DNA from: a virus | Length of the DNA: 64,000 nt | Reading direction: 5' to 3' (one strand) | IMG/VR virus record: IMGVR_UViG_3300020057_000035 | Span: 47,849 to 111,848 of that record | Program-made: the position numbers and the translations under genes | Notes under the pieces: model-generated | What the model saw: the letters and a program-made list of their open reading frames with translations, nothing else | The model's database searches: none | What the model was told of the DNA's origin: nothing | Shown: positions 6,861-42,534 of the stretch, in pieces | Layout: each line of letters starts with the position of its first letter | Numbering within the stretch: the first letter of the stretch is position 1

Positions 6861-7133
6861 TTGGTTGGGGAAGAAGATGGTGTGTTTACTGCAACAAGCA
6901 CTATAAGTGGGGAGTCAAGGATGTTTAGAAGAGACGAAATCGCAAAAGGCACTAATAAAATGCCTTGGGTAGAAAGAGTACCGAACGATCTACTTAAGCA
7001 AAAACCAAAAACAATAGAAAAATGGTATAATAGAGATAGTACTATTAAATGCTTTATTTGTGCATTATCTATAGGTACACTAATTAAAGTTAAAGACGGG
7101 ATTTATACGCATAAAAATTGTCAAGTGAATTAA
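6861..7133 (+). CDS. hypothetical protein with C-terminal CxxC...HxxC motif
   Basis: ORF overlapping the terL start. Confidence 0.5.
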   Translation: MVGEEDGVFTATSTISGESRMFRRDEIAKGTNKMPWVERVPNDLLKQKPKTIEKWYNRDSTIKCFICALSIGTLIKVKDGIYTHKNCQVN

Positions 7134-14476: not shown

Positions 14477-15625
14477 ATGCCAAATAAAATAAAAACAAGA
14501 AAGCATATGATAAAAACATACCAATATAGATTACAAACAAGAAAAAATACAGAAGAGAAATTATTATTCACTCTTGAGCAGTGTAGATTGCTTTACAATA
14601 AGATATTAGAAACAAAAATTAAATATTATGAAATAGAAATTAAATCATTATCTATGTTTGATTGTAATAATTTAATTAAAACTTGGGAAATAAAAAATGT
14701 TAATGCTCAAGTATTGCAAAATGTTTCAGCAAGAGTAGATAATGCATTTAAAGGCTTTTTCAGAAGACTAAAAACAAAAGAAAAAAAAGCTGGTTTTCCT
14801 AGATTTAGGGGATTTAATAGATATGATTCTTTTACCTTTCCTCAATATGGATTTAAATTGAATGGAAAATATCTCAAACTACAAAATATTGGAATTGTTA
14901 AAGTAATTTTACATAGACCAATTGAAGGTAGAATTAAAACATGTACAATTAAACGAAATGGATTAAATCAATGGTTTGTTAGTTTTGTTTGTGAAATAGA
15001 TAAAGAAATAATTATTAGTGATAATAAAAAAGCAATAGGTATTGATGTTGGGTGTAATAAATTTGCAGTAACAAGTGATAATACAATAATTGAGCACCCA
15101 CATTATTACAGACAATCAGAAAAAAAACTAAAAGAACTTCAATCAAACTTTAATGAAGTAATCAATTTATCAAATGATAATAAAAAGAAAATAAATATAA
15201 GGAAAAAACTAACAAGAACACATATTAAAGTAAAGAATCAAAGAAAAGATTTCTTACACAAAACAAGTAGAAGTATAGTAAATGAAAATGGTATTATTTG
15301 TGTAGAAAAACTAAATATTAAGAAAATGACTTCTGATAACTGGAAGTCACTAAACAAAAGCATGCTTGATGGTGGTTGGTATAACTTCAAACAAATGCTA
15401 ACTTACAAGGCAGAATGGGCCGGTAAGAAAGTAGTTGAAGTAAATCCAGCATTCACCAGTCAAACATGTAGTAAATGTGGAAATATTAAAAAGAAAGAAT
15501 TAAATGAAAGAGTACATAATTGTTCATTTTGTGGATTAATATGTGATCGAGATTTTAATGCTTCTTTAAATATATTAAGAGTTGGGATGAACTCTTTGAG
15601 TAGAAATATTCTAAATGCTGTTTAA
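14477..15625 (+). CDS. tnpB: IS200/IS605-family RNA-guided nuclease TnpB; no tnpA in window
   Basis: TYQYRL N-terminus, GFPRF, RuvC IGIDVG / ICVEKL / DRDFNAS intact, TSQTCSKCG...CSFCG zinc finger. Confidence 0.93.
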   Translation: MPNKIKTRKHMIKTYQYRLQTRKNTEEKLLFTLEQCRLLYNKILETKIKYYEIEIKSLSMFDCNNLIKTWEIKNVNAQVLQNVSARVDNAFKGFFRRLKTKEKKAGFPRFRGFNRYDSFTFPQYGFKLNGKYLKLQNIGIVKVILHRPIEGRIKTCTIKRNGLNQWFVSFVCEIDKEIIISDNKKAIGIDVGCNKFAVTSDNTIIEHPHYYRQSEKKLKELQSNFNEVINLSNDNKKKINIRKKLTRTHIKVKNQRKDFLHKTSRSIVNENGIICVEKLNIKKMTSDNWKSLNKSMLDGGWYNFKQMLTYKAEWAGKKVVEVNPAFTSQTCSKCGNIKKKELNERVHNCSFCGLICDRDFNASLNILRVGMNSLSRNILNAV

Positions 15626-21513: not shown

Positions 21514-22367
<854 letters not shown>

Positions 22368-22517
22368 AGTTAAAATCATAATAAATATTCATTTATATTT
22401 TGTTTTAATATATCCCATTCAAGTTGTGTCATTGCGTGCTTGGCTATATTCTCAAACCAAGTCTTCTGATGCCCTAATTGTCACTGGTTATTTGATCATC
22501 CCCTAAAATAGAATACT

Positions 22518-22593
22518 TGGAGCAGACAGGAGGCCATGATCCCCCAACCTCTTCATTACAAATGAAGTGCTCTACCACTTGAGCTATGCCTGC
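22518..22593 (-). tRNA. tRNA-Thr(TGT) with atypical T-loop
   Basis: GCAGGCA/TGTCTGC acceptor stem, CTTCA-TTTGTAA-TGAAG anticodon arm, T-loop ATCATGG, TCCA end. Confidence 0.85.
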
Positions 22594-22626
22594 AAAATCG
22601 CACTCTGCCAACTGAGTTACACTAGC
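22594..22626 (-). pseudogene. 5' half of a tRNA
   Basis: GCTAGTG-TA-ACTCAGTTGGCAGAGT-GCGATTTT ends at the anticodon loop, abutting tRNA-Thr. Confidence 0.6.
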
Positions 22627-22698
22627 CATTATATTATTCTAGCGAAAATACTGTAATAATCAGTATAGTTGAGTGGCATGCTAACAATCTACTGTCTC

Positions 22699-22727
22699 AG
22701 TATAACAGATTGAGTCCGTATTGTCAA
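22699..22727 (-). promoter_or_regulatory. sigma70-type promoter for the tRNAs
   Basis: TTGACA-17 bp-TATACT. Confidence 0.65.
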
Positions 22728-22962
22728 GAGATGTCTAAAAAATCAAAACCTCTTTATTTCTCATTTTAATCTTTTTTGCTTTAATTGTTATATTGTCTTG
22801 ATATGCTGCATATCCGTACGCAATATTAAAATGATCATATGCAAAATTTATAGCTTCTGACAAATAAAACCCATAGTGAATATATGAATACAATTTAATA
22901 ATAGAAAAATCATCTTTTTTTGTGTAAAAATCTACTATACATTCTTCTGGTTTATTAATTTT

Positions 22963-23292
22963 TTAACTCCATATTATGCTAAGTTCTGGTGTTAAACCAG
23001 AAGTTCTCCAATAAGGTTTATTATATTCTTCTTCTATAATAGTTACTTCTGGTGTTTCTATTCCTGTGAAAGTATTATTTAAATAATTGAATAATTCGCT
23101 TAATTTTTCTAATGTATGCGAATCAATTTTTACTCTCAAAAAAGCACACCAATAAACACTAGTTACATTTACTATTTTTCCGCACCCTAACATATTTAAT
23201 TTATTATGTAAGTCTTCGAATGTCTCTAATATCTCTGACTCATCTATGTCTTCTACTGTAATGTTTATTTTAAATTCTAATTCTTTTGTCAT
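22963..23292 (-). CDS. hypothetical protein
   Basis: ORF downstream of the ligase C half. Confidence 0.55.
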   Translation of the reverse strand: MTKELEFKINITVEDIDESEILETFEDLHNKLNMLGCGKIVNVTSVYWCAFLRVKIDSHTLEKLSELFNYLNNTFTGIETPEVTIIEEEYNKPYWRTSGLTPELSIIWS

Positions 23293-23301
23293 ATTTTTCT
23301 C

Positions 23302-23916
23302 TTATTCTTTAAAGTATAAAATGAATTCTGGATTTATTATTTTGAAACTAAGTCTACCTAGTTCTTTGTCTCTAATAGTATTGTCTTCTGATCTAATTAC
23401 AATACCCTCTGCCCACACATTATTATTTATTGTTGATTTAATTGTTGCTTTTGCAACTAATTCATCTATAGTAAATAATAATAAATCAGTACCTAAAAAG
23501 GGTACGTGTCTTAAGTCATTTATTTCACAAAAGACAAGCATCTCAAGAAAATCTAAATATCTATTTTCTTTTCTTGAGTATACGTTAAATACATATAGAT
23601 CTTGTTTAGAGAGTTTTAGTTTATTTCCTTGTATTCCCGGCCCTACTAATTCTCCTTGAACTACATAGTCATCAGAATATTTAGTTAGAATTGATTTAAG
23701 ATTTAATAGTTTTGCTATTCTCCAATAAGAATTATCTTCTGTTTCTTTTATATCTAAGTTTTTACTACACACATGTAATTCACTGTCTTCTACAAATGCA
23801 GTCATACTTGAGTTATGCACTAATATACCATTTGCAAAAAAACTATGAGTATGTTTTGTTTCTATATCATACTTATTTGAACTACAAGAAATCCTAGTTA
23901 TTTTTTTAATTTTCAT
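23302..23916 (-). CDS. Split RNA ligase, C half: 35-aa C-intein plus ligase motifs III-V
   Basis: YDIETKHTHSFFANGILVHN|SSMT; VQGELVGPGIQGN, LYVFNV, EGIVIR, SFKIINPEF. Confidence 0.92.
   Translation of the reverse strand: MKIKKITRISCSSNKYDIETKHTHSFFANGILVHNSSMTAFVEDSELHVCSKNLDIKETEDNSYWRIAKLLNLKSILTKYSDDYVVQGELVGPGIQGNKLKLSKQDLYVFNVYSRKENRYLDFLEMLVFCEINDLRHVPFLGTDLLLFTIDELVAKATIKSTINNNVWAEGIVIRSEDNTIRDKELGRLSFKIINPEFILYFKE
23812..23916 (-). mobile_element. C-intein of a naturally split intein
   Basis: blocks F/G ending HN, +1 Ser; Lys-rich. Confidence 0.92.
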
Positions 23917-24050
23917 TTATTCATTTTTCCTATTTCTTCTAAAATAAAACTATCTAACTCTTCATTGTGATATTAATTGAACCTCACTCGAATTAATCCA
24001 ACCTGTACTAATTACTTTAATATTAGATGTACTCAGGTTACTCCCTTGTG

Positions 24051-24569
24051 CTAGTATATCACCTTTGACTGAGAAATGTCAATAGAGGAGCTTTGCTCGC
24101 GCAAGACAGTAGGAAATGTCCAAGAAGCCGCAGTTAAACGAAAAACAATTTTAGTAGGAACATGGGTTACCCCCCTCTCCCACCTAGATACACTACTTTG
24201 ACTCACCCCTAGTGCTTTAGCGAATCCGCGCTGAGTTTGATGATTTTTTGTTAGGCCAGATGCTCTTAGTTCTATTAACTCTTCTGGCATCATTGGAGGA
24301 AGCAAACAATATTCTCTATTTCTCTCTGCATTAGCACGTTTATATTCTTCCATGCCGTTTATTTGTTCCTTATGGCTTTTCTTTATTAGATTATTGTACA
24401 AATGAAATATATCATAGTTAAATTTACGTGTTGCAAGTATCATCGGCGTAGTTGTGCCTTTTTTATTAGGAAATTGTTCTTCTATGCTCAAGCTACGCTG
24501 TCTCCAAGTTATTAATTTTCTCTTGGAAAAATACCCCATAAGCATACCATCATTGTCTTTAGTCATCAT
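24051..24569 (-). CDS. XRE-family HTH protein (HTH in the C-terminal part)
   Basis: TQRGFAKALGVSQSSVSRWERG. Confidence 0.7.
   Translation of the reverse strand: MMTKDNDGMLMGYFSKRKLITWRQRSLSIEEQFPNKKGTTTPMILATRKFNYDIFHLYNNLIKKSHKEQINGMEEYKRANAERNREYCLLPPMMPEELIELRASGLTKNHQTQRGFAKALGVSQSSVSRWERGVTHVPTKIVFRLTAASWTFPTVLREQSSSIDISQSKVIY
24053..24082 (-). promoter_or_regulatory. sigma70-type promoter upstream of the ligase C half
   Basis: TTGACA-18 bp (ending TGA)-TATACT. Confidence 0.6.
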
Positions 24570-24581
24570 TATTAGTTTGTC

Positions 24582-25481
24582 CTAATCCTTCGATATAAGC
24601 GGTATTTTAATGCACTTTACTGCTGGTCGTATGCCGCAAAGTGGCAGTTGGGTAGGTGTTGAAATAGGAGTCAGTGATCCCACTGGAATTAATGTTTCTG
24701 GTGTCCTAGTAGGTGTGAAAGAAAAAGTAGGTGTTCTAGTAGGGGTAGAGGTGCTAAGTGCTATTGTGGATGTTCCTACTGTGCCTGGAGGCGTATTTGC
24801 GGGAGTTCCCGAGCATACATAAACAGCACACACACCAGCAATATCATCAGAATGTGGCACTGTCATAATACCATGATATGAAGCAAACATTACTGCATTT
24901 GTATCTAAAGAATGTCCAAGTCCTGCGCAATGCCCTATTTCGTGCCATAGAACTGTTTTAAGATCTATTCCACCTGATCCCCAATTAGCATTAGAGGATA
25001 TCTCTATATCACATTCATCTGCTCCTGTCCACCAACAAGCAGTAGCTAATACAGTACCAGATATAGGATACCAATTTATAGTATTTTCTCCGTTAGAAGC
25101 AGCACCTCTACATAAATTAGCATTATCTGAAATAGAAGACAATCCTCCATATTGTAAAGATAGGTTTGGTGTTATTCCATTCCAGCTAGTAGTTACTGCG
25201 TTTGATACAACAGCTTCGTCATTTACTATAGTTAGAGATTTTCCTTCTGGATTATATCTAGTTACTATAGGCATTTTACTTCTCACAAAACCAGTTAACA
25301 CATAATTTTCTATGTTTATTTCTTCTTTTTCTAAAGAATAAACATCTATATTAAAAGTAGATCCATCTGCAAATGTTTTAGAGAATGTGTTAAAGTGTGC
25401 TTCTGCTTTAGTCATATTACTAAAAGTAATAAACACACCAAAAAACATAAACAAACTTAATAATAAATAAATATATCTCAT
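24582..25481 (-). CDS. secreted matrixin-family (M10) metalloprotease
   Basis: signal peptide, HEIGHCAGLGHS, Met-turn AVMFA, DDIAG, Pro/Thr linker. Confidence 0.88.
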   Translation of the reverse strand: MRYIYLLLSLFMFFGVFITFSNMTKAEAHFNTFSKTFADGSTFNIDVYSLEKEEINIENYVLTGFVRSKMPIVTRYNPEGKSLTIVNDEAVVSNAVTTSWNGITPNLSLQYGGLSSISDNANLCRGAASNGENTINWYPISGTVLATACWWTGADECDIEISSNANWGSGGIDLKTVLWHEIGHCAGLGHSLDTNAVMFASYHGIMTVPHSDDIAGVCAVYVCSGTPANTPPGTVGTSTIALSTSTPTRTPTFSFTPTRTPETLIPVGSLTPISTPTQLPLCGIRPAVKCIKIPLISKD

Positions 25482-25506
25482 ATTATTATTCTATCATGTT
25501 GTTTTT

Positions 25507-25730
25507 GTCAATTACTCACTAATTAATTCTACCTCTTACGTCTACTGTATATTACTTTAATGCCCAACCACCACCAACTAATGTTGTTATTGCTAAAATA
25601 ACTCATTGCTTTGCGCGTTCCAAACACCCATGCTCAATAAGAAATTATTATGTGTGGCAGGCGATTGTCAATTCGCCAATAGTGGGAAAAACTTCTCACA
25701 AGCTCACTAATTTATTAGTGAGTAATTGAC
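25507..25730. mobile_element. non-autonomous IS605/tnpB remnant bounded by inverted end copies
   Basis: GTCAATTACTCACTAATTAATT at left, ATTAGTGAGTAATTGAC at right; internal frame ARSKHP...WQAIVNSPIV resembles a TnpB C-terminal tail. Confidence 0.55.
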
Positions 25731-25731
25731 A

Positions 25732-26175
25732 TTAGTGTTCTCCAAAAGCTAATCTGAAATTATTTGGTTTGTATACAGATTCTCTCTGCATCATTCTCTC
25801 CTCTAATTCTGGATTGTGTTTTCTTATCAAAGATAAATACTCTTTGTAAAATACAGAATTGTGTTTTTCTTGTATTCCTACTTTGTAATGAGCTAGTTCA
25901 TGCAAACAAACTATCATTGCATCAATATGATCTTTTCCTATTCTTATAATTATATGTCCATCTCCGAAAGTTGTTCCACTAGAAAAAAACCCGCGTTCTT
26001 CTAATTTTCTAGTTTTAGTTATTGGTCTTATTTTTAGCTCTCTGTTTCCCTCTGATTTCCATTCTATTACAGGAGCAAAGGACTCATTATCAAATTCTTT
26101 TTCCAACAATATATACATAAATTTTTTAATTTTGTAATCGTGAAGCTTACTTACTAATATTTCTTTACTTATCAT
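25732..26175 (-). CDS. SprT-like zinc metallopeptidase
   Basis: HELAH...HNSVF. Confidence 0.65.
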   Translation of the reverse strand: MISKEILVSKLHDYKIKKFMYILLEKEFDNESFAPVIEWKSEGNRELKIRPITKTRKLEERGFFSSGTTFGDGHIIIRIGKDHIDAMIVCLHELAHYKVGIQEKHNSVFYKEYLSLIRKHNPELEERMMQRESVYKPNNFRLAFGEH

Positions 26176-26534
26176 TAAAATCCATAATTTGGATTAATGT
26201 ATATTATTTTTTTAGATCGTATATTCATGTCTATTAACGTATTCCAATATTTAATTTCTTCTGTTACACCAACACTATAATTCCATCCATCTAGTTTAAG
26301 TATCCACAACTCATCTGCTAAATTAAGCATATGAAAATCGTGCTTTTCCCATAGCTTAAATCCATGTACATCTGGTTCTTTAATAAATGGAACTAGACCA
26401 TGTGAGTGAGAAATAGGGGAATAAATGAAATACCCTTTACTAACATAATAAGCAGCAACTTCACATACTGCTTTTATCCTGTAATCTCTAGTTTCTTGTG
26501 ATTTATGTGAATATGGACTTGCCAAATAAATCAA
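26175..26534 (-). CDS. DUF1937-like (nucleoside deoxyribosyltransferase fold) protein
   Basis: IYLASPYSH, YSPISHSH, GWNYSVGVTEE. Confidence 0.75.
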   Translation of the reverse strand: MIYLASPYSHKSQETRDYRIKAVCEVAAYYVSKGYFIYSPISHSHGLVPFIKEPDVHGFKLWEKHDFHMLNLADELWILKLDGWNYSVGVTEEIKYWNTLIDMNIRSKKIIYINPNYGF

Positions 26535-28040
26535 GTATTTTTTACAGCTAACTGTAGTGCATTCTCAACGCGATCCCAACCTACACCATAGAGATCTCCA
26601 TAAGTCTTTCGAATGTATCTCCATTCTGATAAAGTATCAGCGAGCATCGTTATCAACTCTTCGTGGGTATTGAGGATACGAAACATCTCCCTCAGTATGT
26701 CATCACAAAAGTCTCCATCATCGCGAACAACCTCACATAGTAAAGTGTTTCCTTGTACTATGTATTGAACACCAAATGTAGTAGACTTATAAAGCTTCCA
26801 TACTGTATCATTTTGTTCACTCACTTGGTATTTATCACCTTTAATAGCTGAGAGTAAAGATACTCTTGTCTTGAAATTAATTGTTGAAAATCTAAAACTC
26901 TACCTTGATTAGTATATCCATACTTTAGAATGGCTTTAAGGCAATTAGGTAAATCGCTGTAATATCCAATAAAGGACTCTACAGTACCCTCAAGAGCCTC
27001 TTTTGTTTTTAGATTTCTTCTTTGTCTATCGTTTTTTCTGTTTACTTGCCAACCTGTTCCCTCTACTGAACATTCAAATATTACCCACTCATCAATTTCT
27101 AATCTAGTTGCATCTCTTGTTGTTTTCATAAGTTTATGTTACTCTCTCTTATTCTGTTTGTCAAGCGGCTCAAAGAATCTTCCATCTTGGCCGCAATATC
27201 CTAGTCTATTTTGTCGTTGTATTTTTGCAAAATTATAAATTTCTGTAATTTCTCCTGTTGATTTATCTATCTCTTCTTTAATCGCAGAAATATGAGTACA
27301 AAAACTCCATCTGTCTCTGTTTCTAGGCTCTATTTTATAATGTTTACATTCTATACAGATTTTTACCAATCTTTTATATTCTCCGGTTCTAAATCAATCA
27401 TTTATTCTATCATTTATTCTATTCACTGCTTCTAAGTATTCACTTACTATTCGCGCCCAATAAAAGTATCTTTTTTTAACATATAATATTGCTATATTAA
27501 AATATTCTGTATTATGTAATCTAACAATATATGCTGCTATTTCCACATCATTAGGATTGTATTTATTTTTACTATTCCATCCCATTTTTTTAACCCAATT
27601 AAACACTACTACATCAGATTTATTTAATAGAAACTCATATACTTCTGATTGTTTTATTTTTTCTATTGCATCATTGGCGTGTCTACAATTTAATACTAGC
27701 TTATTAAGTTTCTTAACATCTGTTCTCGGGGCTAGTACTATAGCACTCATATTATTTAATCCTCTGGGAGGATATAATTATTATCGTTTGCTTTAAGTTG
27801 CGCTAGCATTTCTGCTATCTTAGGGTTTTTGTGCTTCATAAGAGGACTATTATGGTTAGTCTTAGAGTACCACGCTTGAAAACCTCCAGTTACTGTAGTA
27901 GATATATGGAAGGCAATATACCCTTTATCTAATAACTGTTTAGGTATATACCAAAATATGTCATTGTTTTCTAATGAATCAAAAGCGGTAAGAGGGAGAA
28001 ATTTCTCTAAATCTTCGTATAGTTTTTCAATATTAATCAT
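26531..28040 (-). other. run of five small hypothetical genes (26531-26824, 26821-27129, 27139-27369, 27394-27750, 27756-28040)
   Basis: tightly packed co-directional ORFs with no recognisable motifs. Confidence 0.55.
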
Positions 28041-28158
28041 AAATATATATTCTTAATTCTAAACCATGTTTGTTTAGTTTCCCACACTCAGGACAAAGTT
28101 GTGTTGAAGGAAAACTTCTTGAAACGAGTATTGTCTCTGATTTCTTTTGTAAATCATT
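28033..28158 (-). pseudogene. tnpB fragment (zinc-finger region)
   Basis: translates as ETILVSRSFPSTQLCPECGKLNKHGLELRIY. Confidence 0.55.
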
Positions 28159-29014
28159 AAAATTCCTTACCGCTTTGATTTACGTCAAACACAAATAAAC
28201 CCATCCTTCTCCACATTCTCACAACTCTTGGTCGATCATCAATTACAAACAAAACATTCCAAAAATCTTTAATATAGTTATTAAAAATTTCTCTTTTTAC
28301 AATATCATCTGCTCTATGATCTCCTTCTTTTCTCATAAACAAAGCTAAATATTCTACATTGTGTTTCTTGAGCCATTGTTCTGTCTCTTCTCTGAATTCA
28401 GAAGTTCTACCAGACAAAAGTATTATTTCATATGGTAAAGCAGAAATAATATTGTATACAGGCAAATTTAATTCATCATTTATGAAATCTCTCTTGTAGG
28501 GATTTTTATCTCCACCAAAAATCGAGAGTGTGCCGTCGATGTCCACAGTTACGGCTTTTTCTAGTTCTGTGTTTGGTACATATTGTTTTAGTTCTTGAAC
28601 CTGATCTCCATATCGTTTATCATAATCTCTAATTACTTTTTCCCCTACTGATTTATCTCTTAACGAATCGCGTCTGATTGCTTCTTCTACTTCAATAGGT
28701 ACTTGAATAATTTGCATTCCAATATTAGGGTCAATCAATTGTGCAAGCGCAGAAATATGAATAATAGCGTTACCAAAATTAGTATTATCTACTACTACTG
28801 TTTGATTATTCTCAATACCAATTCTGATAATCTCATCTTGAATAAGATTTACAATACGTTCATTTGGTTTACTGTGTCTGGAGTCATGAAGCATGGATCT
28901 TATGTCGTCTTTTGAAACCCTGAGTGATGTGTCTGGTAATTTACTTACTATTTCTCTTGCTTTAGTACTTTTTCCTGCGGCAATTCCCCCTTGCATTACA
29001 ATTATAGTAGACAT
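28157..29014 (-). CDS. pseT: polynucleotide 5'-kinase/3'-phosphatase (T4 PNK-like)
   Basis: GGIAAGKST, DDIR, VDNTN kinase motifs; DIDGTL, LSGR, IDDRP HAD phosphatase motifs. Confidence 0.93.
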   Translation of the reverse strand: MSTIIVMQGGIAAGKSTKAREIVSKLPDTSLRVSKDDIRSMLHDSRHSKPNERIVNLIQDEIIRIGIENNQTVVVDNTNFGNAIIHISALAQLIDPNIGMQIIQVPIEVEEAIRRDSLRDKSVGEKVIRDYDKRYGDQVQELKQYVPNTELEKAVTVDIDGTLSIFGGDKNPYKRDFINDELNLPVYNIISALPYEIILLSGRTSEFREETEQWLKKHNVEYLALFMRKEGDHRADDIVKREIFNNYIKDFWNVLFVIDDRPRVVRMWRRMGLFVFDVNQSGKEF

Positions 29015-29137
29015 TTCTTATATTCCTCATATTTTTTTAAATCTTTATCTAAAAATTTCATTGTTTTATTCTCTAGTAGTTCGTCTTATTTGTCCTATCC
29101 CCGGAAGGTATTCCATTTAGATATATTATTGTTTCCA

Positions 29138-29443
29138 CTATAATTGATCAACTAACATTAAAAGATCCCCCACCTTTAAAAGATCTGCTCTCCTATAACA
29201 ATTCAATTCAGGAACCCAGACCTTGTGATTACCAGTTAAGGTTATATTTGTTCCGTTCTCTAATTCAATTTCATACCAATCATTTGATTTTGAACCTATT
29301 GAATGCCCAACAACATCATCCCAGAACACTTCTTCTTTTTCAGTGTCAAAAGACTTTATTTTACCAGTATATTTAATATCACAAACTTCTTTTATAGTCT
29401 TTGGTCCATCCTCTGTATCTATTACAGCACAGTCCGAAAGACA
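29138..29443 (-). mobile_element. N-intein of a naturally split intein
   Basis: Cys1, block B TLTGNHKVW, RADLLKVGD then stop; acidic; no endonuclease domain. Confidence 0.92.
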
Positions 29444-29992
29444 GCCATCAACTTTCTCTGTGACGTAGATAGGAACGCCAGAATGCCTCTGTAGCACAGT
29501 AGGAACACTCTGTATTCGTGTTTCGTCTGTTTTCGATATGAAACTAGGGAAAGATCCTCGCACGAGTCCAGAGAGCGATCCAATTAAAGGTATCTCATAT
29601 TTATGAATCCCCATTAACTCGGTTACATCCGTTCCTTCTTCAAGAATATCTTGTGTAAATCCATAATTAGACATGAAACTTGATAAATCAGAAATAGGTA
29701 AACATAAGCCTTGTGACACAGATCCGCGCAAGCGAACCGTACGTAATCTGTATCCTTCTTTTGTTTCTCCATTTACATTCATAGTTTTTCTTCCGTCTTT
29801 TTCCATGAATTCAAATAGGGTGTGTATAGGTAAAAAAGCATCAGGTTCAATAAATACAACTGTATCATTTACATTAAATTTGCCTTTTTGTACGCACAAA
29901 TTCCAGCCCAAAACAACCGCTATTTCTAGCAGATCAGCGTTGGGGTGTTTTTTTATTTCTTTAATTTTCTGGATGCTTGCGATTTTTCTCAA
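29138..29992 (-). CDS. Split RNA ligase (DRB0094/Rnl2-like), N half plus 101-aa N-intein
   Basis: RKIASIQKI...HPNAD OB-like domain, LRGSVSQGL, FISKTDETRIQ, motif I EKVDG then CLSDCA intein start. Confidence 0.93.
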   Translation of the reverse strand: MRKIASIQKIKEIKKHPNADLLEIAVVLGWNLCVQKGKFNVNDTVVFIEPDAFLPIHTLFEFMEKDGRKTMNVNGETKEGYRLRTVRLRGSVSQGLCLPISDLSSFMSNYGFTQDILEEGTDVTELMGIHKYEIPLIGSLSGLVRGSFPSFISKTDETRIQSVPTVLQRHSGVPIYVTEKVDGCLSDCAVIDTEDGPKTIKEVCDIKYTGKIKSFDTEKEEVFWDDVVGHSIGSKSNDWYEIELENGTNITLTGNHKVWVPELNCYRRADLLKVGDLLMLVDQL

Positions 29993-30219
29993 AATTAAGA
30001 TGCTCCTTGTTTGTATCTTAACTGAAACTTAGTATTTTGTCAAGCGGTCGGTGACATTTATTTTCCCAACACGCCATCGTAACTTTCTTTCCTTTTTCCC
30101 CCTGCGTTATGTGCCAATGATCAAATGATAAATAAGTATGATAATCTTCTTTTTCATCTTTACACATGTTGCAATATCTTTTTGAACCATCTACTTTAGG
30201 ATAATGGAAATGTCTCATT

Positions 30220-30591
30220 CTAACTCTGCTTTTTGAAAACCCTTACATCTCCTACTTGAACATATTGAACTAGTCTTTTTTTACACCTACTACATATTTC
30301 TATTTTTTCTGTCCACAAACATGCCCACCCAGGATTCCCAGGAAATGCTTCATTGCAATTAGTTGTTACATCTACTCCATTTATTTCAACATATAATTCT
30401 GTACTTTGTATATCTACTCCGTCTACTTCTATATATAATCCAGACATACCATGAGTTTTATCTATTCTAATAGGAAAATCAAATCTATTACATTTTAAAC
30501 ACAATAACTGATTATTCATCCATGATCGATCTACTAATTTAGCTTTTTCTGGATCTGCATTAATTGTTTTAAATCTATTGTTTCTATTCAT
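30220..30591 (-). CDS. hypothetical protein
   Basis: ORF with a short internal duplication LYIEVDGVD/LYVEINGVD. Confidence 0.55.
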   Translation of the reverse strand: MNRNNRFKTINADPEKAKLVDRSWMNNQLLCLKCNRFDFPIRIDKTHGMSGLYIEVDGVDIQSTELYVEINGVDVTTNCNEAFPGNPGWACLWTEKIEICSRCKKRLVQYVQVGDVRVFKKQS

Positions 30592-30643
30592 TTGGTACTA
30601 ATATTGCTCCTTCTACTTAAACTGCATATTAACATTTATTGCC

Positions 30644-33133
30644 TTAGCCAACAGATCCATCCATTTGTAGCTCTATTAATCTATTTAGTTCTACAGCATA
30701 TTCCATTGGTAGTTGTTTTACGATTGGTTCTATAAAGCCATTAACAATCATTTTTGCGGCGGAATCTTCACTCATACCTCTACTCATAAGATAAAATAAT
30801 TGATCTTCACCAAGTTTCGAGACATACGCTTCGTGCTGAATATGTACATCTGATGAATCTATTTCCATCGTCGGATACGTGTCCGAGCGAGAAGTTTCAC
30901 CTACGAGAAGCGCATCACATCTTACATTCGATTTAATGTTTTCACAATTATCATATACTTTAAGTAATCCACGATAACTCGTTCTTCCACCATCAATACT
31001 TACTGATTTTGAAACAACTGTTGAAGTAGTATTAGATGCGCTATGAATTACTTTTCCACCAGCGTCTAAATGTTGTCCTTTTCCAGCAACAGCAAGAGAA
31101 AGTATTTCTCCGTGTGCTCTTTCTCCCATTAAATAAATGCTGGGATACTTTAGAGTTAAGCAACTTCCTCCGTTGAAATCTGTCCATTCCATAACTGAAT
31201 CTTCATATGCAACTGCGCGTTTAGTAACAAGATTATATACATTATTAGACCAATTTTGAATTGTTGTATACCTTACTCTTGCGCCTTTTTTAACTATTAT
31301 TTCTACTACAGCACTGTGTAATGATTCAGAACTATACACGGGGCTGGAACAGTTGTGAACAACAAAACCAGAAGCTAAATAACTATTAGGAAAATCAACA
31401 TTTAAATTATAAACAGGCTCTGAAATATCTCTAGTAGATATTTTTTTAATAGGAACTAGAAAATATTCTCCAGCGTCCCGTACTTCTCGTGAACCATTAC
31501 CCCCTTCTGTCCATTGAACTTGATACAATGCGTGACGCATTATATGCCTACCTAAAATTTCTCCTGACCCAGCTACTCGTGACATACTAATAGTAGAATA
31601 AATATCTAATGTAGCCATAATTGATTGAAGCTGAAGTGCCCACGTTCGAGAGGTAGTGTGTGCTCTTTTCCAATCTACATTTTTTCTTTTGATAACATTA
31701 CCATCACCATACATATATGTTTCTACCAAATTTTTAAGAAATTCTTTATTTTGTCCCATTAAGACAGAAGATAGTTTTTTGCTATATGATCTAGTTCCAA
31801 TATGATTTTTCATTGCATCATATCCTTCGTTTGTATAAACAAGAACTCTTCCCTCATGTTTTTTCTTGTCATAATAAACTGATCCGCTAGATCCATATAA
31901 ATATTTACAAATACTTTGAACTTCTTCAATATATTGTGTTTCATTAATATGAAAGGAGAAACTCAAAGCTTTGTATTTATTACATAATTGCGCAGATCCT
32001 TCAGCAAGATAATATCCAGCTAATCTAGCAAACTCTATAGGCATGTTAATATTTGACTTAATGTGTTTTGGTTTAGGGAACACTAAAAAGTCTCCATCAA
32101 GTACATCTTTTGCTTTAACCCATTCAGGAATAGAATTTATTAGTGATGGGCTATTAACTTCAGGTTTATTTTGCTTACGTTGTTTACGTTTTATTAACAC
32201 TTTAAGTCTTGGAACAATCAACAAGGGGTGTTCTCCCGTAACTGAAAAAGCACTATTTGGTGATATTGGTTTAAATGTAAATAGTGTTCCAGAAAAATCT
32301 CGTACTTGTGTAGCATTAACTCGGACAGGGCTACCGTTTTGATCTAATACATGATCTCCGACTTTTACATCTTCAATTCCAGACCAACTACCGTCCGCCA
32401 TGGATATTGATTCTCCCGCTATAAGACACCCTTCAAGGTAGTGGACTTGACTATCTTCATCAGCAATAATCAATGTTCTTTCGAATTGTCCCATTACTTC
32501 TGTATTGATTCTAAAATATGCCTGTAAAGGAATATCCACTTTTACACCTTTTGGTATATAAATAAAACTGCCCCCTGACCAACAGGCGCTATTAAGTGCG
32601 GCGTATTTATTATCTCCGGGAGGTATTATTGTACTAAAATATTCTCTAAGTAAATCTGGATATTCTATTAGTGCTTGATCTGTACTTAAAAATATAACAC
32701 CAAGTTTTTCAAGATCTTCCCTTAATTTATGATAAATAACAGTAGAATCCATTTGCGCTCCAACGCCAGCCAAATACTTCTTTTCTGCTTCTGGTACCCC
32801 TAATTTATCAAAAGTTGTTTTGATATATTCTGGTACATCTTCCCAAGAACTTTCGTCTTTATCAGAAGCTGTTACATAATACCTTATGTTATCAAAGTCG
32901 ATATTTTCTAGTTGATTTGTGCTTGTCCACGTTGGATTTTTTTGTTTATAAAATAAATCAAGTGATTTAAGTCTAAATTTTCTCATCCACTCCGGTTCAT
33001 TTTTCATATCAGATATTGTATTAATAATATCAGAACTTAAACCCTTATTAGATTTAAATACAGGAGGGGTGTCATCGTGGAAACCATACTTGGTTTCGTA
33101 ATTTTCTTCTTTTACTAATGTAGCACTGTTCAT
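30644..33133 (-). CDS. sufB: Fe-S cluster assembly scaffold SufB with intein
   Basis: WSGGSFIYIPKGV, PLQAYFRIN, GQFERTLII, HYLEG|CSSPVY, LHSAVVE, RYTTIQNW, FYLMSRG. Confidence 0.96.
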   Translation of the reverse strand: MNSATLVKEENYETKYGFHDDTPPVFKSNKGLSSDIINTISDMKNEPEWMRKFRLKSLDLFYKQKNPTWTSTNQLENIDFDNIRYYVTASDKDESSWEDVPEYIKTTFDKLGVPEAEKKYLAGVGAQMDSTVIYHKLREDLEKLGVIFLSTDQALIEYPDLLREYFSTIIPPGDNKYAALNSACWSGGSFIYIPKGVKVDIPLQAYFRINTEVMGQFERTLIIADEDSQVHYLEGCLIAGESISMADGSWSGIEDVKVGDHVLDQNGSPVRVNATQVRDFSGTLFTFKPISPNSAFSVTGEHPLLIVPRLKVLIKRKQRKQNKPEVNSPSLINSIPEWVKAKDVLDGDFLVFPKPKHIKSNINMPIEFARLAGYYLAEGSAQLCNKYKALSFSFHINETQYIEEVQSICKYLYGSSGSVYYDKKKHEGRVLVYTNEGYDAMKNHIGTRSYSKKLSSVLMGQNKEFLKNLVETYMYGDGNVIKRKNVDWKRAHTTSRTWALQLQSIMATLDIYSTISMSRVAGSGEILGRHIMRHALYQVQWTEGGNGSREVRDAGEYFLVPIKKISTRDISEPVYNLNVDFPNSYLASGFVVHNCSSPVYSSESLHSAVVEIIVKKGARVRYTTIQNWSNNVYNLVTKRAVAYEDSVMEWTDFNGGSCLTLKYPSIYLMGERAHGEILSLAVAGKGQHLDAGGKVIHSASNTTSTVVSKSVSIDGGRTSYRGLLKVYDNCENIKSNVRCDALLVGETSRSDTYPTMEIDSSDVHIQHEAYVSKLGEDQLFYLMSRGMSEDSAAKMIVNGFIEPIVKQLPMEYAVELNRLIELQMDGSVG
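31352..32428 (-). mobile_element. Intein in SufB, LAGLIDADG type, 359 aa
   Basis: CLIAGE start, TGEHP, LAGYYLAEG and YMYGDG, VVHN end, +1 Cys. Confidence 0.94.
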
Positions 33134-34114: not shown

Positions 34115-34188
34115 TGGCTCCCCCACTAGGTCTCGAACCTAGCCCAAATTTTTAACAGAAATTTATACTGCTACTATACTATGGAGGA
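34115..34188 (-). tRNA. tRNA-Asn(GTT)
   Basis: TCCTCCA/TGGGGGA acceptor stem, AATTT-CTGTTAA-AAATT anticodon arm, GTTCGAG, GCCA end. Confidence 0.85.
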
Positions 34189-34270
34189 ACTATATAAAAC
34201 TAAAATAATTCTTAAACTATTTTAACTGAGCATGTAAACTCAGACCTAAGAATTATTAATTTATTAAATT

Positions 34271-34346
34271 TGGCAAGGGTGACAGGAATCGAACCTGTAT
34301 TATGGGGTCTGGAAGCCCATGTGTTTATCCATTACACTACACCCCC
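34271..34346 (-). tRNA. tRNA-Trp(CCA)
   Basis: GGGGGTG/CACCCTT acceptor stem, loop TTCCAGA, GTTCGATT, GCCA end. Confidence 0.85.
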
Positions 34347-34374
34347 GCACTATATCTATTATACCACAAACTGA

Positions 34375-34959
34375 TCAATCCCAAAGCTGGGGTAGTAAAA
34401 CTCCTAATTGAACTACACACCATGGCACAAAGTTTTGTCCATAAAGTGCTTCTGGATCTTTTTTCTTTTGCATTGCTTTATAAGCAACAATAGAACTAAA
34501 TAACTGCTCTACTCCTTTTAGTTCTTCATGTTTTGCCATAAAGTTCATGTCGTGTTTACATGCCCATATATATCCAGCAAGGAATTGAGACATAAACTCT
34601 AATATTGTTTCTTCATTTTCCCAATATTTCTTTACAGATATTTTTATTTCTTTATATGGATTATCTTTATGAAAATGCCAACCTCTGGCTAGATTTTCTG
34701 CATCTTCTATAGATCTATATTTAGTCCATATGTTTTTAGTATTATATTTAAGATTATCATAATCATCTATGATTAATATATCAGACTTAATCCACGATAA
34801 AACTTTACTTCTTGCGTCATCTTCTCTTTGATCTTCGTCTCCCTTAGAACACGTAATGTAGTTAGAATTTATTAATTCAGTACATAGTTCACTAAAAACT
34901 ACTGCTTTATCGTCTTTCATATACTCTTTTAGATCAAATTTGCTTTTTATTTTTTTCAT
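34375..34959 (-). CDS. hypothetical protein
   Basis: 194-aa ORF with GAGG RBS. Confidence 0.65.
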   Translation of the reverse strand: MKKIKSKFDLKEYMKDDKAVVFSELCTELINSNYITCSKGDEDQREDDARSKVLSWIKSDILIIDDYDNLKYNTKNIWTKYRSIEDAENLARGWHFHKDNPYKEIKISVKKYWENEETILEFMSQFLAGYIWACKHDMNFMAKHEELKGVEQLFSSIVAYKAMQKKKDPEALYGQNFVPWCVVQLGVLLPQLWD

Positions 34960-34980
34960 ATTTGCCTCTTATTTTAATTA

Positions 34981-35054
34981 TGGAGTGTAGTTCAAGAATC
35001 GAACTTGATCCAGTTCGGCCACAACGAACCATTCTGCCAATAAACTAACCACAC
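34981..35054 (-). tRNA. tRNA-His(GTG)
   Basis: GTGTGGT/ACTACAC acceptor stem, GTTCG-TTGTGGC-CGAAC anticodon arm, TTCGATT, TCCA end. Confidence 0.85.
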
Positions 35055-37882: not shown

Positions 37883-38326
37883 TTAAACACAGACAATAAA
37901 CCTGCCATCTAGTATATTTTCTAACATCGGTTTTACTTGTATTTCCCAATTTAATCCACCTAAACCGCATCCTAACTTTGGTAATGCAATTTTATCGTCT
38001 TTTGAAACATGCTCACTTACTAAAATAGCATTTTGTTTAATTAGTTCAATAGAAGAAGAGTCTTTCCAATGTATTTTAGTAGGAAAGCATATTAAGGATT
38101 TTGGTTTTCCGTTTATATCAGAAGTGGTTATTGCTTTAGGCTTATCTTTTTTATATTGTATCGCCTTGCCATATAAGTACTGTAGTCTTGAATATTTATC
38201 AGATGCTTGCTTAGCCAAACCTGCTCCCATAACAGCAGTTCCATCTTTTCTGATTTGACAATTTGTGGGTATTATGATATAGTCACAATCTATTTCCCAA
38301 ATATCTATCCCAGCTACAGTAATCAA
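37883..38326 (-). CDS. macro-domain (ADP-ribose processing) protein
   Basis: VMGAGLAKQ, FPTKIHW, ALPKLGCGLGGLNW. Confidence 0.88.
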   Translation of the reverse strand: MITVAGIDIWEIDCDYIIIPTNCQIRKDGTAVMGAGLAKQASDKYSRLQYLYGKAIQYKKDKPKAITTSDINGKPKSLICFPTKIHWKDSSSIELIKQNAILVSEHVSKDDKIALPKLGCGLGGLNWEIQVKPMLENILDGRFIVCV

Positions 38327-40875
38327 TTAGAAAAATAAACAGGATACAGGGCCTCCAGACCTCTTTTTTCGCTCATCACAAGCACAGTTTGTGATGGTTT
38401 ACTTATTTTACCATATGCCTTAAGGTACCAGTTGCTTCCGCCGTCAATCGTGCCATTCTGACATACTGTGATTCCTCCGACTCTGAAACTAGCGAAATCA
38501 TGCCTGTGTCCCGTAAGTACTAACTCGGGTGTGCATTTAAATATGTTTGATAAAGCCCATTGTGGTAGTAATCTTTGTAGATCCCACACTGGTCCTCTCC
38601 ATTGATCTCCATGCATCATTACTACATCGTGACTTAATGAGTTAAGTTTACCCCACCAATTTTCGTGTATATTCCATTTTATATTTGATTGATTTATACA
38701 TTTATCTTGCGCCCACCAAGCTAACATTGTATCAAAGTTGTCTTCTGGATCAGCATAATCATTTTTACCATTTGGTCTACCATGATTACCGGGAACACTA
38801 TCTACTATTACTTCTGGAAAATAACTTGCCATGTCCATAGCTAATGATGCTACTAATCTTGCTGCCATTGGTATTTGTCTTGTTATTCTATGTGAATTAG
38901 CTGTCTTATCTAACCCAGAAACGTTTTGTCCAGCGTAAATAAAACAGTTATGAGTAACAACACCATCTGCTATAAAGGTATGATCTTGATCGACGGTTAT
39001 GTTATACACAGGCTCTGCTATTTCACTTTTGTTTATCTCTAACACCTTAGAATATCTACACCCTAAAGGAGGATCTACGACTCTTCCTTTATCACAAACT
39101 GGATAAGTGGTAACTCTCCTAGTCCTTTTTTTGTTGCCCCACCTTTTATTATATATAGGTGTATAAGAGCCTACTTTCATATTTAAATCTGAGGAGTTAC
39201 ACATAGAAACCCACAACACAGACTCCATTGATCCTCCTTGTGGAAGAGGACATATTCTAGTTTGTGATCTAATTCTAGATGTTAATAATCCCGAAGTGAC
39301 ACACAATTCATTAATATCTCTAATAAGATCTTTATTAGTAGAGCTATAAACTATTTGTCCTAGTTTATTAACGTATCCATCTGAATCTAAATATCCCCTA
39401 AGAAATGCTAATTTATACTCATTAGATAAATTAAATACCCATTTTGGAACCCGTTTAGTTCTAGCATATCCAGCTACACCAGCATTAACCATTATCTCTG
39501 CTGCTTGTTTTGAACTAAACCTAGATCCGCTTTCATTTAGACCAATGTGTATTTGTTCTCCGTTGTGTTTTATAAATAATTGTTTACATATATCCCAATA
39601 TCTATCCATGTATCCAATATTTTTATTATCATGAGATAAATAAATACCAGAAGGATTTCCTTTTATGTCTCTTGTTAAACACCCATTCCCTAAGTAAAAA
39701 CCCAATATTTCCATTAACTCAATAGATGCTGTTCCAACCGGAGTATAATTACTTTCAGATTTAACATCATCAACTATACATAATAAATCCCCCTCTCTAA
39801 CATCAGAGGCTCTGATGTATTCATGTGTGGTTATGTATCTATTTCTCTTTGGAAGAACATGAGTAGATATTTTAGTTCTTCGTTGTACCAAAATAGGATG
39901 TTCTGCATTAGCTTTAATTGTTTTCTCTATAGATCCAATTGTATATATTGGATCTATCCCAGTCATTTCAGAAGCAATTACTTCTCTTGCTTTAAACCCA
40001 CTCCCTGTATATGCCCAAACATAATCTCCTTTTTGTATATTTTGAATTTCTATTGGACCTGTCGGCGTAGACACTATAGATCCAGCAGGTAAGCATCCTT
40101 CGACGAGATCTCCAAGTAAGACTAACCTACCAGTATTGATTGGACAACCAGACGCTTTGAAGTGTTCTGTGATTTTTCTTGCTGCGTCCATTAGTCTAGG
40201 TATTCTTTCTTCTTCCATTATTTTAATACCTATCCCATTTTCCATTTTTCCTATTTGCCAATCAGAAGCCACTACAATAATTTCTCTCTCACTCTTTGAA
40301 GAATTATTTTTATTAGGAATTGGAACGATAGGAAATCTTAATTCTGGGGTTGAGTCATGTAGGTCTTTTAATTCGAATCTCATAAAGTCTCGTAATGAGG
40401 TTAAGTATGTATTTTTTCTTATTAATTGATTTTTTTGTTCAAATGCTCTTTTTGCCATTTCAAGATTAGTAGCATCGGGCAACAGAGATCCCTCTTCTTG
40501 AAGTATCTCTTCTGTAGTCCATTCTAAATCAGAATTATGGCACACAGAAGAACAAAAGAAGTTATTAGCATTTACTGGAACAAATCTATTTATGCAAAGT
40601 TTATTTTTACATCGTCTTGTTATTGATGTTTCTGTAATTTCTTCTTTTATTATTTTTGAAATTCCTGCTCCCTTTCCTCTAGAAATAAACTTACCATGTA
40701 CTCTTTTTACATATTCTGATACGGATTTTGCACTCTTAATTACACCGAAATTTGTAGCTATACTTTCAGATATGTTTTTTCCTATATGTACATCATCACT
40801 ATTATTGATCTCTTGATCAATAAAATCAGATATAAGTTTTTTTGTTTCTTTATCACACTCTTTATAAAGAATCAA
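38323..40875 (-). CDS. calcineurin-like metallophosphoesterase with intein
   Basis: SDWQIG, LGDLVEG|C, VPGNHGR, MHGD, TGHRH. Confidence 0.88.
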   Translation of the reverse strand: MILYKECDKETKKLISDFIDQEINNSDDVHIGKNISESIATNFGVIKSAKSVSEYVKRVHGKFISRGKGAGISKIIKEEITETSITRRCKNKLCINRFVPVNANNFFCSSVCHNSDLEWTTEEILQEEGSLLPDATNLEMAKRAFEQKNQLIRKNTYLTSLRDFMRFELKDLHDSTPELRFPIVPIPNKNNSSKSEREIIVVASDWQIGKMENGIGIKIMEEERIPRLMDAARKITEHFKASGCPINTGRLVLLGDLVEGCLPAGSIVSTPTGPIEIQNIQKGDYVWAYTGSGFKAREVIASEMTGIDPIYTIGSIEKTIKANAEHPILVQRRTKISTHVLPKRNRYITTHEYIRASDVREGDLLCIVDDVKSESNYTPVGTASIELMEILGFYLGNGCLTRDIKGNPSGIYLSHDNKNIGYMDRYWDICKQLFIKHNGEQIHIGLNESGSRFSSKQAAEIMVNAGVAGYARTKRVPKWVFNLSNEYKLAFLRGYLDSDGYVNKLGQIVYSSTNKDLIRDINELCVTSGLLTSRIRSQTRICPLPQGGSMESVLWVSMCNSSDLNMKVGSYTPIYNKRWGNKKRTRRVTTYPVCDKGRVVDPPLGCRYSKVLEINKSEIAEPVYNITVDQDHTFIADGVVTHNCFIYAGQNVSGLDKTANSHRITRQIPMAARLVASLAMDMASYFPEVIVDSVPGNHGRPNGKNDYADPEDNFDTMLAWWAQDKCINQSNIKWNIHENWWGKLNSLSHDVVMMHGDQWRGPVWDLQRLLPQWALSNIFKCTPELVLTGHRHDFASFRVGGITVCQNGTIDGGSNWYLKAYGKISKPSQTVLVMSEKRGLEALYPVYFSN
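38947..40095 (-). mobile_element. Intein in metallophosphoesterase, LAGLIDADG type, 383 aa
   Basis: CLPAGS start, NAEHP, LGFYLGNG and FLRGYLDSDG, VTHN end, +1 Cys. Confidence 0.92.
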
Positions 40876-41375: not shown

Positions 41376-42185
41376 CTAATCCTTTACCATATCTAAAGCA
41401 TACTCTACTGCTTTAAGTGTTTCTGGGTCTTTATCTTGTACTCTGTAACACAAAGACTCTTTATAGCAGGCTCTACACTGTTTACTTGTTCTAACAAAAG
41501 GTGGCTCTATTAGTTCACCCCTCTTACTGTATTCTCTTGCTACCATTGGAAGAGCAAACAAATCATTCATTAGCTTTGTATCAGGCTTAACATATCTTAT
41601 TTTATACTCTTGAGTATCTGTATTCTCAAATAAGAATATTCCTACATCTGATGTCTTATACTCTGTGTCTTTGAATATTTTAATATATTGAGCTAATTGA
41701 TACATATATGATCTTTCTTGTATAGCAAACATTCTAGCCATTTGTTCTAGATCTTCTGTTTGTTCTGGAAGACTTTTATATCTAAATGCGTTCATTGTTT
41801 TTATTTCTAAAATAAAATTTTCATCAGTGAGTGGATTTTTTACTATGACATCGCACTCTCCACTCCAACCTATTTCTTCTACTTTCAGTCTAACATTTTT
41901 GGCTACCAGTATTCCTGATGCTTCAAATTCATCATTCCATCTATCGTGTGCGGCTGTACCGTTTCTTGTTCTTCTTAGGTTTTGTGGTTTCATTTTTTCT
42001 CTGAAACCTAACATAGAAAATTGAATAGCTCTTGAGCAATTACCACCAGAACTAGATGGTCTAATAGATAACACGGGTGGAGAATTTAGACCATTTTTAT
42101 TGCCTTCTCTAAATAGTTGTTGATCTAAGTTTTCTCCTACCCAATCTTTGTCTCTTATTTGTTTTAGAAACCTACTTATTCCCAT
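41376..42185 (-). CDS. Cas4-like PD-(D/E)xK exonuclease
   Basis: C...GTAAH...GECD...LEIKT, QLAQY, CRACYKESLC. Confidence 0.8.
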   Translation of the reverse strand: MGISRFLKQIRDKDWVGENLDQQLFREGNKNGLNSPPVLSIRPSSSGGNCSRAIQFSMLGFREKMKPQNLRRTRNGTAAHDRWNDEFEASGILVAKNVRLKVEEIGWSGECDVIVKNPLTDENFILEIKTMNAFRYKSLPEQTEDLEQMARMFAIQERSYMYQLAQYIKIFKDTEYKTSDVGIFLFENTDTQEYKIRYVKPDTKLMNDLFALPMVAREYSKRGELIEPPFVRTSKQCRACYKESLCYRVQDKDPETLKAVEYALDMVKD

Positions 42186-42534
42186 TAAATTTATCCATTC
42201 TGTCTGAGATCGTCCACATATGCTCTTCTACAAAACTTTCTATAATCAACAGAAGCTGTTCTTTATCTTTTAATTGTACTTCATTTATTCTCAAAATAGG
42301 AACACCGGCTATTTCTAAAAACCAAAGATCTCTATTTTTGTCATGAAGTTTTTGTTTCGGAGAATCATGCATTGGTCCATCATATTCAAACCCTAAATGC
42401 ACTTCTTCTACATAACAATCAAGAGTGTATTTTCCTATTTGCTTCTCGTCTTCTACACCAAACCCTATGTCAGAAATAATAGAATGTAATTCTCTATGTG
42501 GTTTAGTTAAAGATGTTGGTTGTGTGACAGACAT
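42172..42534 (-). CDS. DUF559/Vsr-like endonuclease
   Basis: YTLDCY...FEYDGPMH...DKNRD. Confidence 0.8.
   Translation of the reverse strand: MSVTQPTSLTKPHRELHSIISDIGFGVEDEKQIGKYTLDCYVEEVHLGFEYDGPMHDSPKQKLHDKNRDLWFLEIAGVPILRINEVQLKDKEQLLLIIESFVEEHMWTISDRMDKFNGNK

Follow-up and report, generated by a model that had tools for sequence, protein, structure and literature searches.

How does a phage make an RNA ligase when the gene for it lies in two pieces, with ten other genes in between? This question is raised by a locus in the IMG/VR record IMGVR_UViG_3300020057_000035 (111.8 kb, ~73% complete), of which a stretch of 64,000 nt, hereafter the window, forms part. The window carries two open reading frames (ORFs) on its minus strand, one of 284 amino acids (aa) and ~32 kDa at 29138-29992, the N-half, and one of 204 aa and ~24 kDa at 23302-23916, the C-half. 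An initial annotation of the window had interpreted them as an RNA ligase gene that is split at motif I by a natural split intein, and both the ORFs and their profile matches agree with that interpretation. Based on sequence comparisons and a structural model, we consider it likely that a single RNA ligase of the Rnl5 type is made here as two polypeptides that would be joined by trans-splicing, that it would work with a polynucleotide kinase-phosphatase (Pnkp) in RNA repair, and that the locus derives from a fractured gene, i.e., one with a free-standing homing endonuclease gene between two adjacent halves.

The N-half gene begins with a TTG codon and encodes, in this order, the N-terminal part of an Rnl5/DRB0094-type ligase, motif I, a 101-aa N-intein, and a stop codon, and the junction between extein and intein reads ...YVTEKVDG followed by CLSDC...LTGNH...LNCYRR...LVDQL. 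The N-extein (residues 1-183; 29444-29992, minus strand) comprises the OB domain and the beginning of the nucleotidyltransferase domain, with motif I (...TEKVDG) at its very end. The N-intein (29141-29443, minus strand; stop codon 29138-29140) contains Cys1 in CLSDC, block B in LTGNH, the conserved stretch WYEIELENG, and LNCYRR. The C-half gene, with an ATG at 23916, opens with a 35-aa C-intein of the form MKIKK...FFANGILVHN (23812-23916, minus strand), with the full sequence MKIKKITRISCSSNKYDIETKHTHSFFANGILVHN, in which His is penultimate and Asn terminal. The C-extein that follows (residues 36-204; 23305-23811, minus strand; stop codon 23302-23304) starts with a +1 Ser (SSMTAF...) and holds the remaining ligase motifs, QGELVG, EGIVIR and LSFKIINPEF. 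The intein parts are recognized by the curated profiles TIGR01445 (intein_Nterm, 33.3 bits against a cut-off of 24.5) and TIGR01443 (intein_Cterm, 29.1 bits against a cut-off of 15.6), and score 126 and 66.8, respectively, with hidden Markov models (HMMs) of their own intein family; Pfam PF14890 falls below its cut-off for either half scored alone. The lengths of both intein parts, the Cys1, the TGNH block and the ...ILVHN end were all as the initial annotation had described them.

Are these halves equipped to splice? Residue conservation was judged over 41 members of the split-intein family. The class 1 nucleophile is Cys184 of the N-half, directly after ...EKVDG, and its column is invariant in the N-intein alignment, as are a Trp and a Cys-x-Arg motif. 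The block B Thr-x-x-His corresponds to LTGNH at N-intein residues 69-73, with an invariant Thr and with TGNN in some relatives. In the C-intein alignment, the penultimate His and the terminal Asn are invariant, and the +1 residue, Ser here, is Ser, Cys or Thr across the family. All class 1 splicing residues are therefore present in the window pair, at columns that are invariant or nearly so. The architecture is that of a naturally split intein, as the N-half stop and the C-half start agree with the end and start positions in 70 relatives. An acidic N-intein and a basic C-intein had also been proposed, and the computed values are a net charge of -9 (pI 4.5) for the former and +4 (pI 9.7) for the latter. 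In the 111.8-kb record, the N-intein and the C-intein of this family each occur exactly once, and so do the ligase N and C domains, which leaves no ambiguity as to the pairing and makes this the only ligase of its kind that the record contains.

When the exteins are joined, the product has 352 aa and a computed mass of 40.1 kDa, with motif I restored as KVDGSS, as predicted. On the solved Naegleria gruberi ligase (NgrRnl), residues 1-183 of the N-half align with chain residues 4-174 (E 5e-27), and the C-half from Ser36 onward aligns with chain residues 175-326 (E 2e-19), so that the exteins are exactly collinear, with neither a gap nor an overlap at the join. The break point is located four residues past the motif I lysine. 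KVDG, with the lysine nucleophile, is in the N-half; the C-half supplies QGELVG, EGIVIR and LSFKIIN, which line up with NgrRnl as motifs III, IV and V. The initial annotation had labelled the enzyme "DRB0094/Rnl2-type", of which the first part holds and the second does not. TIGR02306 (RNA_lig_DRB0094) matches at positions 2-218 on the N-half (E 2.5e-35) and 179-339 on the C-half, with 121.9 and 49.8 bits, respectively, the cut-off of 151 bits being passed only by the simple sum of these scores. In addition, the N-half has the PHA02142 OB fold/PF21189 (residues 5-100, E 2e-25), and the C-half matches PF09414 (RNA_ligase, E 1.2e-20). The Rnl2 profile TIGR02307 matches only with an E value of 4e-6. 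By these sequence criteria the extein is of the Rnl5 type, i.e., that of DraRnl (DRB0094) and NgrRnl (PDB 5cot, 6vt*), and Rnl2 is excluded. It shares with these ligases an OB domain in front of the nucleotidyltransferase domain and a KxDGSS motif I, and the spliced length of 352 aa compares with 340 aa for the NgrRnl chain. However, DraRnl and NgrRnl are single, uninterrupted chains, whereas the window ligase is cut just beyond the motif I lysine.

To examine whether the intein parts resemble a matching pair in three dimensions, we modelled the complex of N-intein and C-intein, which gave a score of 0.72, compared to 0.01 for the best of three controls. Of 80 solved complexes, 58 reached the score mark used, as did 2 of 110 mismatched pairs; these counts are only rough, own alignments having been used. 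The model runs agreed in at least 94% of contacts, and the predicted local distance difference test (pLDDT) of the partner was at least 70. This result may come from the model's memory of solved inteins such as NrdJ-1 (8ubs) and DnaE, and it shows likeness rather than binding by this particular pair.

Both genes lie within one long leftward array, each with a promoter-like site ahead of it. The site upstream of the N-half (TTGACA-N17-TAAGAT, 30015-30043, minus strand) and the one 137 nt upstream of the C-half start (TTGACA-N18-(TG)TATACT, 24053-24082, minus strand) are consensus matches only; the pattern of the N-half site has two matches in the window, compared to 0.15 expected by chance. A strong ribosome-binding site, AAGGAG, is present 8 nt ahead of the TTG start of the N-half. 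In the mechanism that we propose, the N-half would supply the OB domain and the motif I lysine nucleophile, fused to the acidic N-intein, and the C-half the remainder of the nucleotidyltransferase domain, preceded by the basic C-intein. The oppositely charged intein halves would attract each other, an electrostatically steered encounter, and fold into a single HINT domain. Class 1 splicing would proceed by an acyl shift at Cys1, transfer to the +1 Ser, cyclisation of the terminal Asn, and an O-to-N shift, leaving a seamless ligase with motif I intact. Since motif I and motifs III-V reside on different chains, no adenylation is expected from either half alone. The predicted activity of the spliced enzyme is the ATP-dependent sealing of 3'-OH/5'-PO4 RNA nicks.

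What sets this locus apart is the distance between the halves. From the N-half stop to the C-half start there are 5221 bp, with ten ORFs on the same strand, in line with the 5.2 kb and approximately ten genes reported initially. To place this value, related loci were collected by a pattern scan of IMG/VR, yielding 76 loci, to which two contigs of metagenome-assembled genomes (MAGs) were added to give 78; many further ligase N-halves with this N-intein, and C-halves with this C-intein, occur in metagenome protein sets. A C-intein follows on the same strand 15-1759 bp downstream, mostly at 900-1100 bp, in 70 of the 76 IMG/VR loci. L068 is a further standard locus beside those 70, and the layout of both MAG contigs is likewise standard, with one of them breaking off before the C-half. 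Altogether, a nearby C-half (<1.8 kb) was confirmed in 72 of the 78 loci, which upholds the contrast originally drawn with fractured genes whose parts are adjacent. L043 is a contiguous mini-intein, and L015, L055 and L074 are cut by contig ends. The 5.2-kb gap of the window is a clear outlier of the family.

The absence of an endonuclease gene is the other particularity. The gaps of the relatives encode proteins of 290-340 aa with DUF7487 and a Vsr/DUF559-like end, which are the Vsr-like endonucleases described by Dassa, London, Stoddard, Schueler-Furman and Pietrokovski in 2009 (PMC2677866). In approximately 15 loci, with gaps of 15-400 bp, the endonuclease is already absent. When positions 22000-31000 of the window were searched with the relatives' gap proteins and an HMM built from them, no endonuclease remnant was matched, and the Xre-type helix-turn-helix (HTH) protein encoded directly upstream of the C-half proved unrelated to the homing endonuclease of the family (hhalign probability 0.5%). 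A free-standing homing endonuclease between adjacent halves, the hallmark of a fractured gene, is thus found in the relatives and is lacking in the window. In conclusion, ligase genes that are cut by split inteins are common in phages, and it is the wide spacing without an endonuclease gene that is rare.

Such an exceptional spacing might be an assembly artefact, with 5.2 kb wrongly joined into what is in truth a fractured gene of the ordinary, adjacent kind. The contig is indeed a metagenome assembly, and the Pnkp region, which directly follows the N-half, is mosaic: the metagenome contig L084 (2388 bp), collinear with window 30485-28098, shows three differences down to ~28600 and then ~30% divergence in the 3' half of the Pnkp gene, a sharp breakpoint (window 28098-28600) with the divergence running across the phosphatase domain. 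However, L084 reproduces the N-half stop and the start of Pnkp, where an ordinary locus would continue with an endonuclease gene or the C-half, therefore the junction between N-half and Pnkp is not an error of one assembly. Across the N-half gene the two sequences are nearly identical, with two changes, which makes the comparison uninformative about selection on the N-intein. In addition, the window from 18 to 56 kb is a uniform minus-strand gene array in which strand, G+C content and skew run smoothly throughout, and the exact C-half protein is recorded on three contigs. Taken together, we regard a misassembly as highly improbable. IMG/VR scans with the N-half, Pnkp and the C-half singly found no close relative of the phage, only an intein-free ligase (L087).

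A different explanation is that the locus is a decaying relic, in which a rearrangement tore a fractured ligase gene apart, with halves that are not co-expressed or do not splice, and no working ligase coming from the locus. This would account for the lost endonuclease and for a spacing that is unique among the 78 loci, and disruptive rearrangements do occur in the family, as L052 shows with its inverted endonuclease gene and a C-half that was not found. Furthermore, L084 carries a D156G substitution in the conserved KTDETR motif, which could reflect relaxed constraint in that strain. Decay is nevertheless difficult to reconcile with two intact ORFs whose starts match the family consensus, with the retention of every splicing residue and ligase motif, with a promoter-like site for each half in unchanged strand and order, and with an intact Pnkp gene next door, which would be of little use without a ligase; we therefore judge it unlikely. 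It is also conceivable that the intein halves merely clamp the ligase pieces together and that the unspliced heterodimer is active. The strong interface predicted by the model would suit such a non-covalent assembly, but the catalytic splicing residues are all conserved, and a HINT domain of ~136 aa left in motif I, four residues past the lysine, would probably block the active site, making this very unlikely. Several points weigh against a ligase that depends on trans-splicing: the ribosome-binding site of the C-half is weak, the record is only ~73% complete, and therefore a second, intact ligase might exist elsewhere in the genome, the independent assembly support covers the N-half/Pnkp junction and not that of the C-half, and the D156G change in L084 affects a conserved motif. 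In addition, neither meaningful direct or inverted repeats nor any other scar was found around the 5.2-kb block that would support the history proposed below. We nevertheless favour two intact half-genes that yield one spliced ligase.

How could a trans-spliced ligase gene have acquired this layout? Its ancestor would have been an ordinary fractured ligase gene, consisting of the N-half, a Vsr-like endonuclease gene and the C-half. The endonuclease would then have been lost, and a 5.2-kb block of ten genes acquired, or the locus rearranged around that block. Because of this ten-gene block, the intein would no longer be removable by simple conversion with an intein-free allele. The fractured genes of Dassa et al. 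(gp41-1, NrdJ-1, IMPDH-1, NrdA-2 and one DNA ligase locus, with no RNA ligase among them; PMC2677866) resemble the window locus in their phage origin and in having a split class 1 intein at a conserved active-site motif. NrdJ-1, IMPDH-1 and NrdA-2 also combine an acidic N-intein with a basic C-intein, and relatives of the window intein flank Vsr-like endonuclease genes, as in those fractured genes. The window differs in having no endonuclease gene, 5.2 kb and ten unrelated genes between the halves, and an Rnl5 RNA ligase as host protein. Another known system is the cyanobacterial DnaE intein (Ssp/Npu), which likewise has separate loci with unrelated genes between them and no associated endonuclease, is fixed in an essential-type enzyme, and belongs to the same HINT fold family (profile E values of 1e-8 to 1e-5). 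However, the DnaE halves are separated by over 700 kb in a cellular chromosome (PMC2874743), whereas those of the window are 5.2 kb apart, on the same strand, in order and in a phage, and the host protein and insertion site differ as well. The locus may thus be an intermediate between the compact fractured genes of phages and the dispersed, endonuclease-free DnaE of cyanobacteria, and suggests that the split intein of a phage can survive both the loss of its endonuclease and the insertion of genes between its halves, after which loss by gene conversion would be hard. Among the papers searched, none describes an RNA ligase with a split intein, and a survey of actinobacteriophages lists cis inteins only, in RtcB-like and tRNA-splicing ligases. 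What is unusual here is an endonuclease-free phage split intein with ten genes between its halves; the cut itself is ordinary.

A bolder proposal is that the dispersed layout has been selected rather than having arisen by accident, with the intein locked into an RNA-repair module, because an intein-free allele could replace it only by deleting the block of Pnkp and nine other genes, and with trans-splicing acting on phage RNA repair as a switch of timing or dosage. We consider this rather unlikely. If true, the ligase would be active only where two genes under separate control are expressed together and their products pair, and a virus would for the first time be seen to use a natural split intein for such regulation.

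The gene that follows the N-half gives an indication of what the spliced ligase may be for. It encodes a Pnkp (28157-29014, minus strand) with a P-loop kinase domain (AAA_33, E 8e-10) and a HAD phosphatase domain (PF25109 HAD_PNKP, E 8e-37). The tRNA repair pathway of phage T4 consists of Pnkp and Rnl1, and the window shares with it a phage kinase-phosphatase beside an RNA ligase gene and a likely role against host tRNA nucleases, but the ligase is Rnl5, not Rnl1, and it is split. Ligase and Pnkp would together heal and seal broken RNA, most likely tRNA that is cut by anticodon nucleases of the host, and the pair points to phage RNA repair, probably directed against tRNA-cutting host defences. 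Pnkp genes are also found near split ligases in L039 and L053/L054. The region is flanked by five tRNA genes (Gly, Thr, Asn, Trp and His), at window 21515-22593 and 34115-35054, in keeping with a phage that protects its translation from host defences directed at tRNA.

The other nine genes of the gap (24051-28040, minus strand) were annotated from the ORF list and a domain search. Five are small ORFs of 94, 118, 76, 102 and 97 aa with no informative match. The others, all on the minus strand, are a DUF1937 gene (26175-26534), a gene for a 147-aa HExxH protein (25732-26175), one for a secreted, matrixin-like metalloprotease (24582-25481), and that of the Xre-type HTH protein (24051-24569). Between the matrixin-like gene and the 147-aa gene, the intergenic segment 25506-25731 contains a 23-nt inverted repeat, 96% complementary, with arms that are 180 nt apart and a TTGACA in each arm; it might have a regulatory role or mark the boundary of a module.

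Viewed over all loci, the split RNA-ligase allele is not unique to the window. The host proteins are ATP-dependent DNA ligases (21 loci), an Rnl1-like group (18), Rnl5 (12, including the window), a second group with the OB domain first (9), other PF09414 ligases (4) and an NAD-dependent DNA ligase (1), and RNA-ligase-type exteins occur in ~45 of the IMG/VR loci. The insertion site is nearly always directly past motif I (KxDG^C or KxHG^C), with KxDGEN^C and KTDExR^C as minor sites. One NrdJ-1-related family with Vsr-like endonucleases is thus seated at KxDG of at least five classes of ligase (Rnl5, Rnl1-like, other PF09414 RNA ligases, and ATP- and NAD-dependent DNA ligases), which suggests, but does not prove, homing at a motif that is shared across the whole ligase superfamily. 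NrdJ-1 (8ubs) is the nearest solved intein (profile E values of 3e-11 and 6e-11 for the N and C parts, respectively); in single-sequence searches the window C-intein reaches NrdJ-1 with an E value of 4e-4 and the window N-intein fails to reach it. In a tree of the inteins, those of DNA ligases form one group (support 91/91), and those of RNA ligases do not resolve, the alignment being too short to decide whether the latter switched exteins. The branch of the window intein is long, and no other member shares more than 54% identity with it. The window pair may be a new orthogonal one, as the initial annotation suggested, but in a large family whose nearest solved member is NrdJ-1 it may also cross-react with NrdJ-1 or with sister inteins. 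For protein engineering, the family offers dozens of natural intein pairs with Ser, Cys or Thr at the +1 position.

A few of the related loci deviate in ways of their own. In L010 (9923-13292), an Rnl5 ligase is present in at least 3-4 pieces, with two split inteins of the same family, one after KTDEPR and one after EKID, and a further break between 12256 and 12738; if this ligase is functional, the two related inteins must not cross-react. In L052 (9539-13562), the N-half of an ATP-dependent DNA ligase with its N-intein is followed by an inverted gene for a Vsr-like endonuclease and two unrelated genes, and no C-half was found within 3.1 kb or elsewhere in the 112-kb record, making it either a second case with non-adjacent halves or one that is broken. 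Extra C-intein matches in the L052 and L055 records were considered as a second dispersed example and rejected, as they belong to a terminase cis-intein and a fractured DNA polymerase, and L068, another candidate, proved to be standard. L086 (737-2442, on the record of L055) is a fractured family B DNA polymerase with a related C-intein (...FFANDILAHN^S) that is preceded by a short Vsr-like ORF.

Finally, some other genes and inteins were noticed in the phage. At window 42172-42534 (minus strand), 12 kb from the split ligase, there is a stand-alone 120-aa DUF559/Vsr-like nuclease domain (Pfam E 7e-6), which is only a weak match to the nuclease end of the family endonucleases (hhalign probability 48%) and was the sole weak hit in the search for an endonuclease remnant. 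Contiguous inteins are abundant, at window 56-6004, 7118-9625, 30644-33133 and 38323-40875: at least two are present in ribonucleotide reductase (LAGLIDADG-type, plus an HNH domain), and one of the LAGLIDADG type in each of the terminase large subunit, SufB and an unassigned protein of 850 aa. The phage genome also carries a TnpB/OrfB_IS605 (Cas12f-like TNB) gene, at window 14477-15625 on the plus strand.

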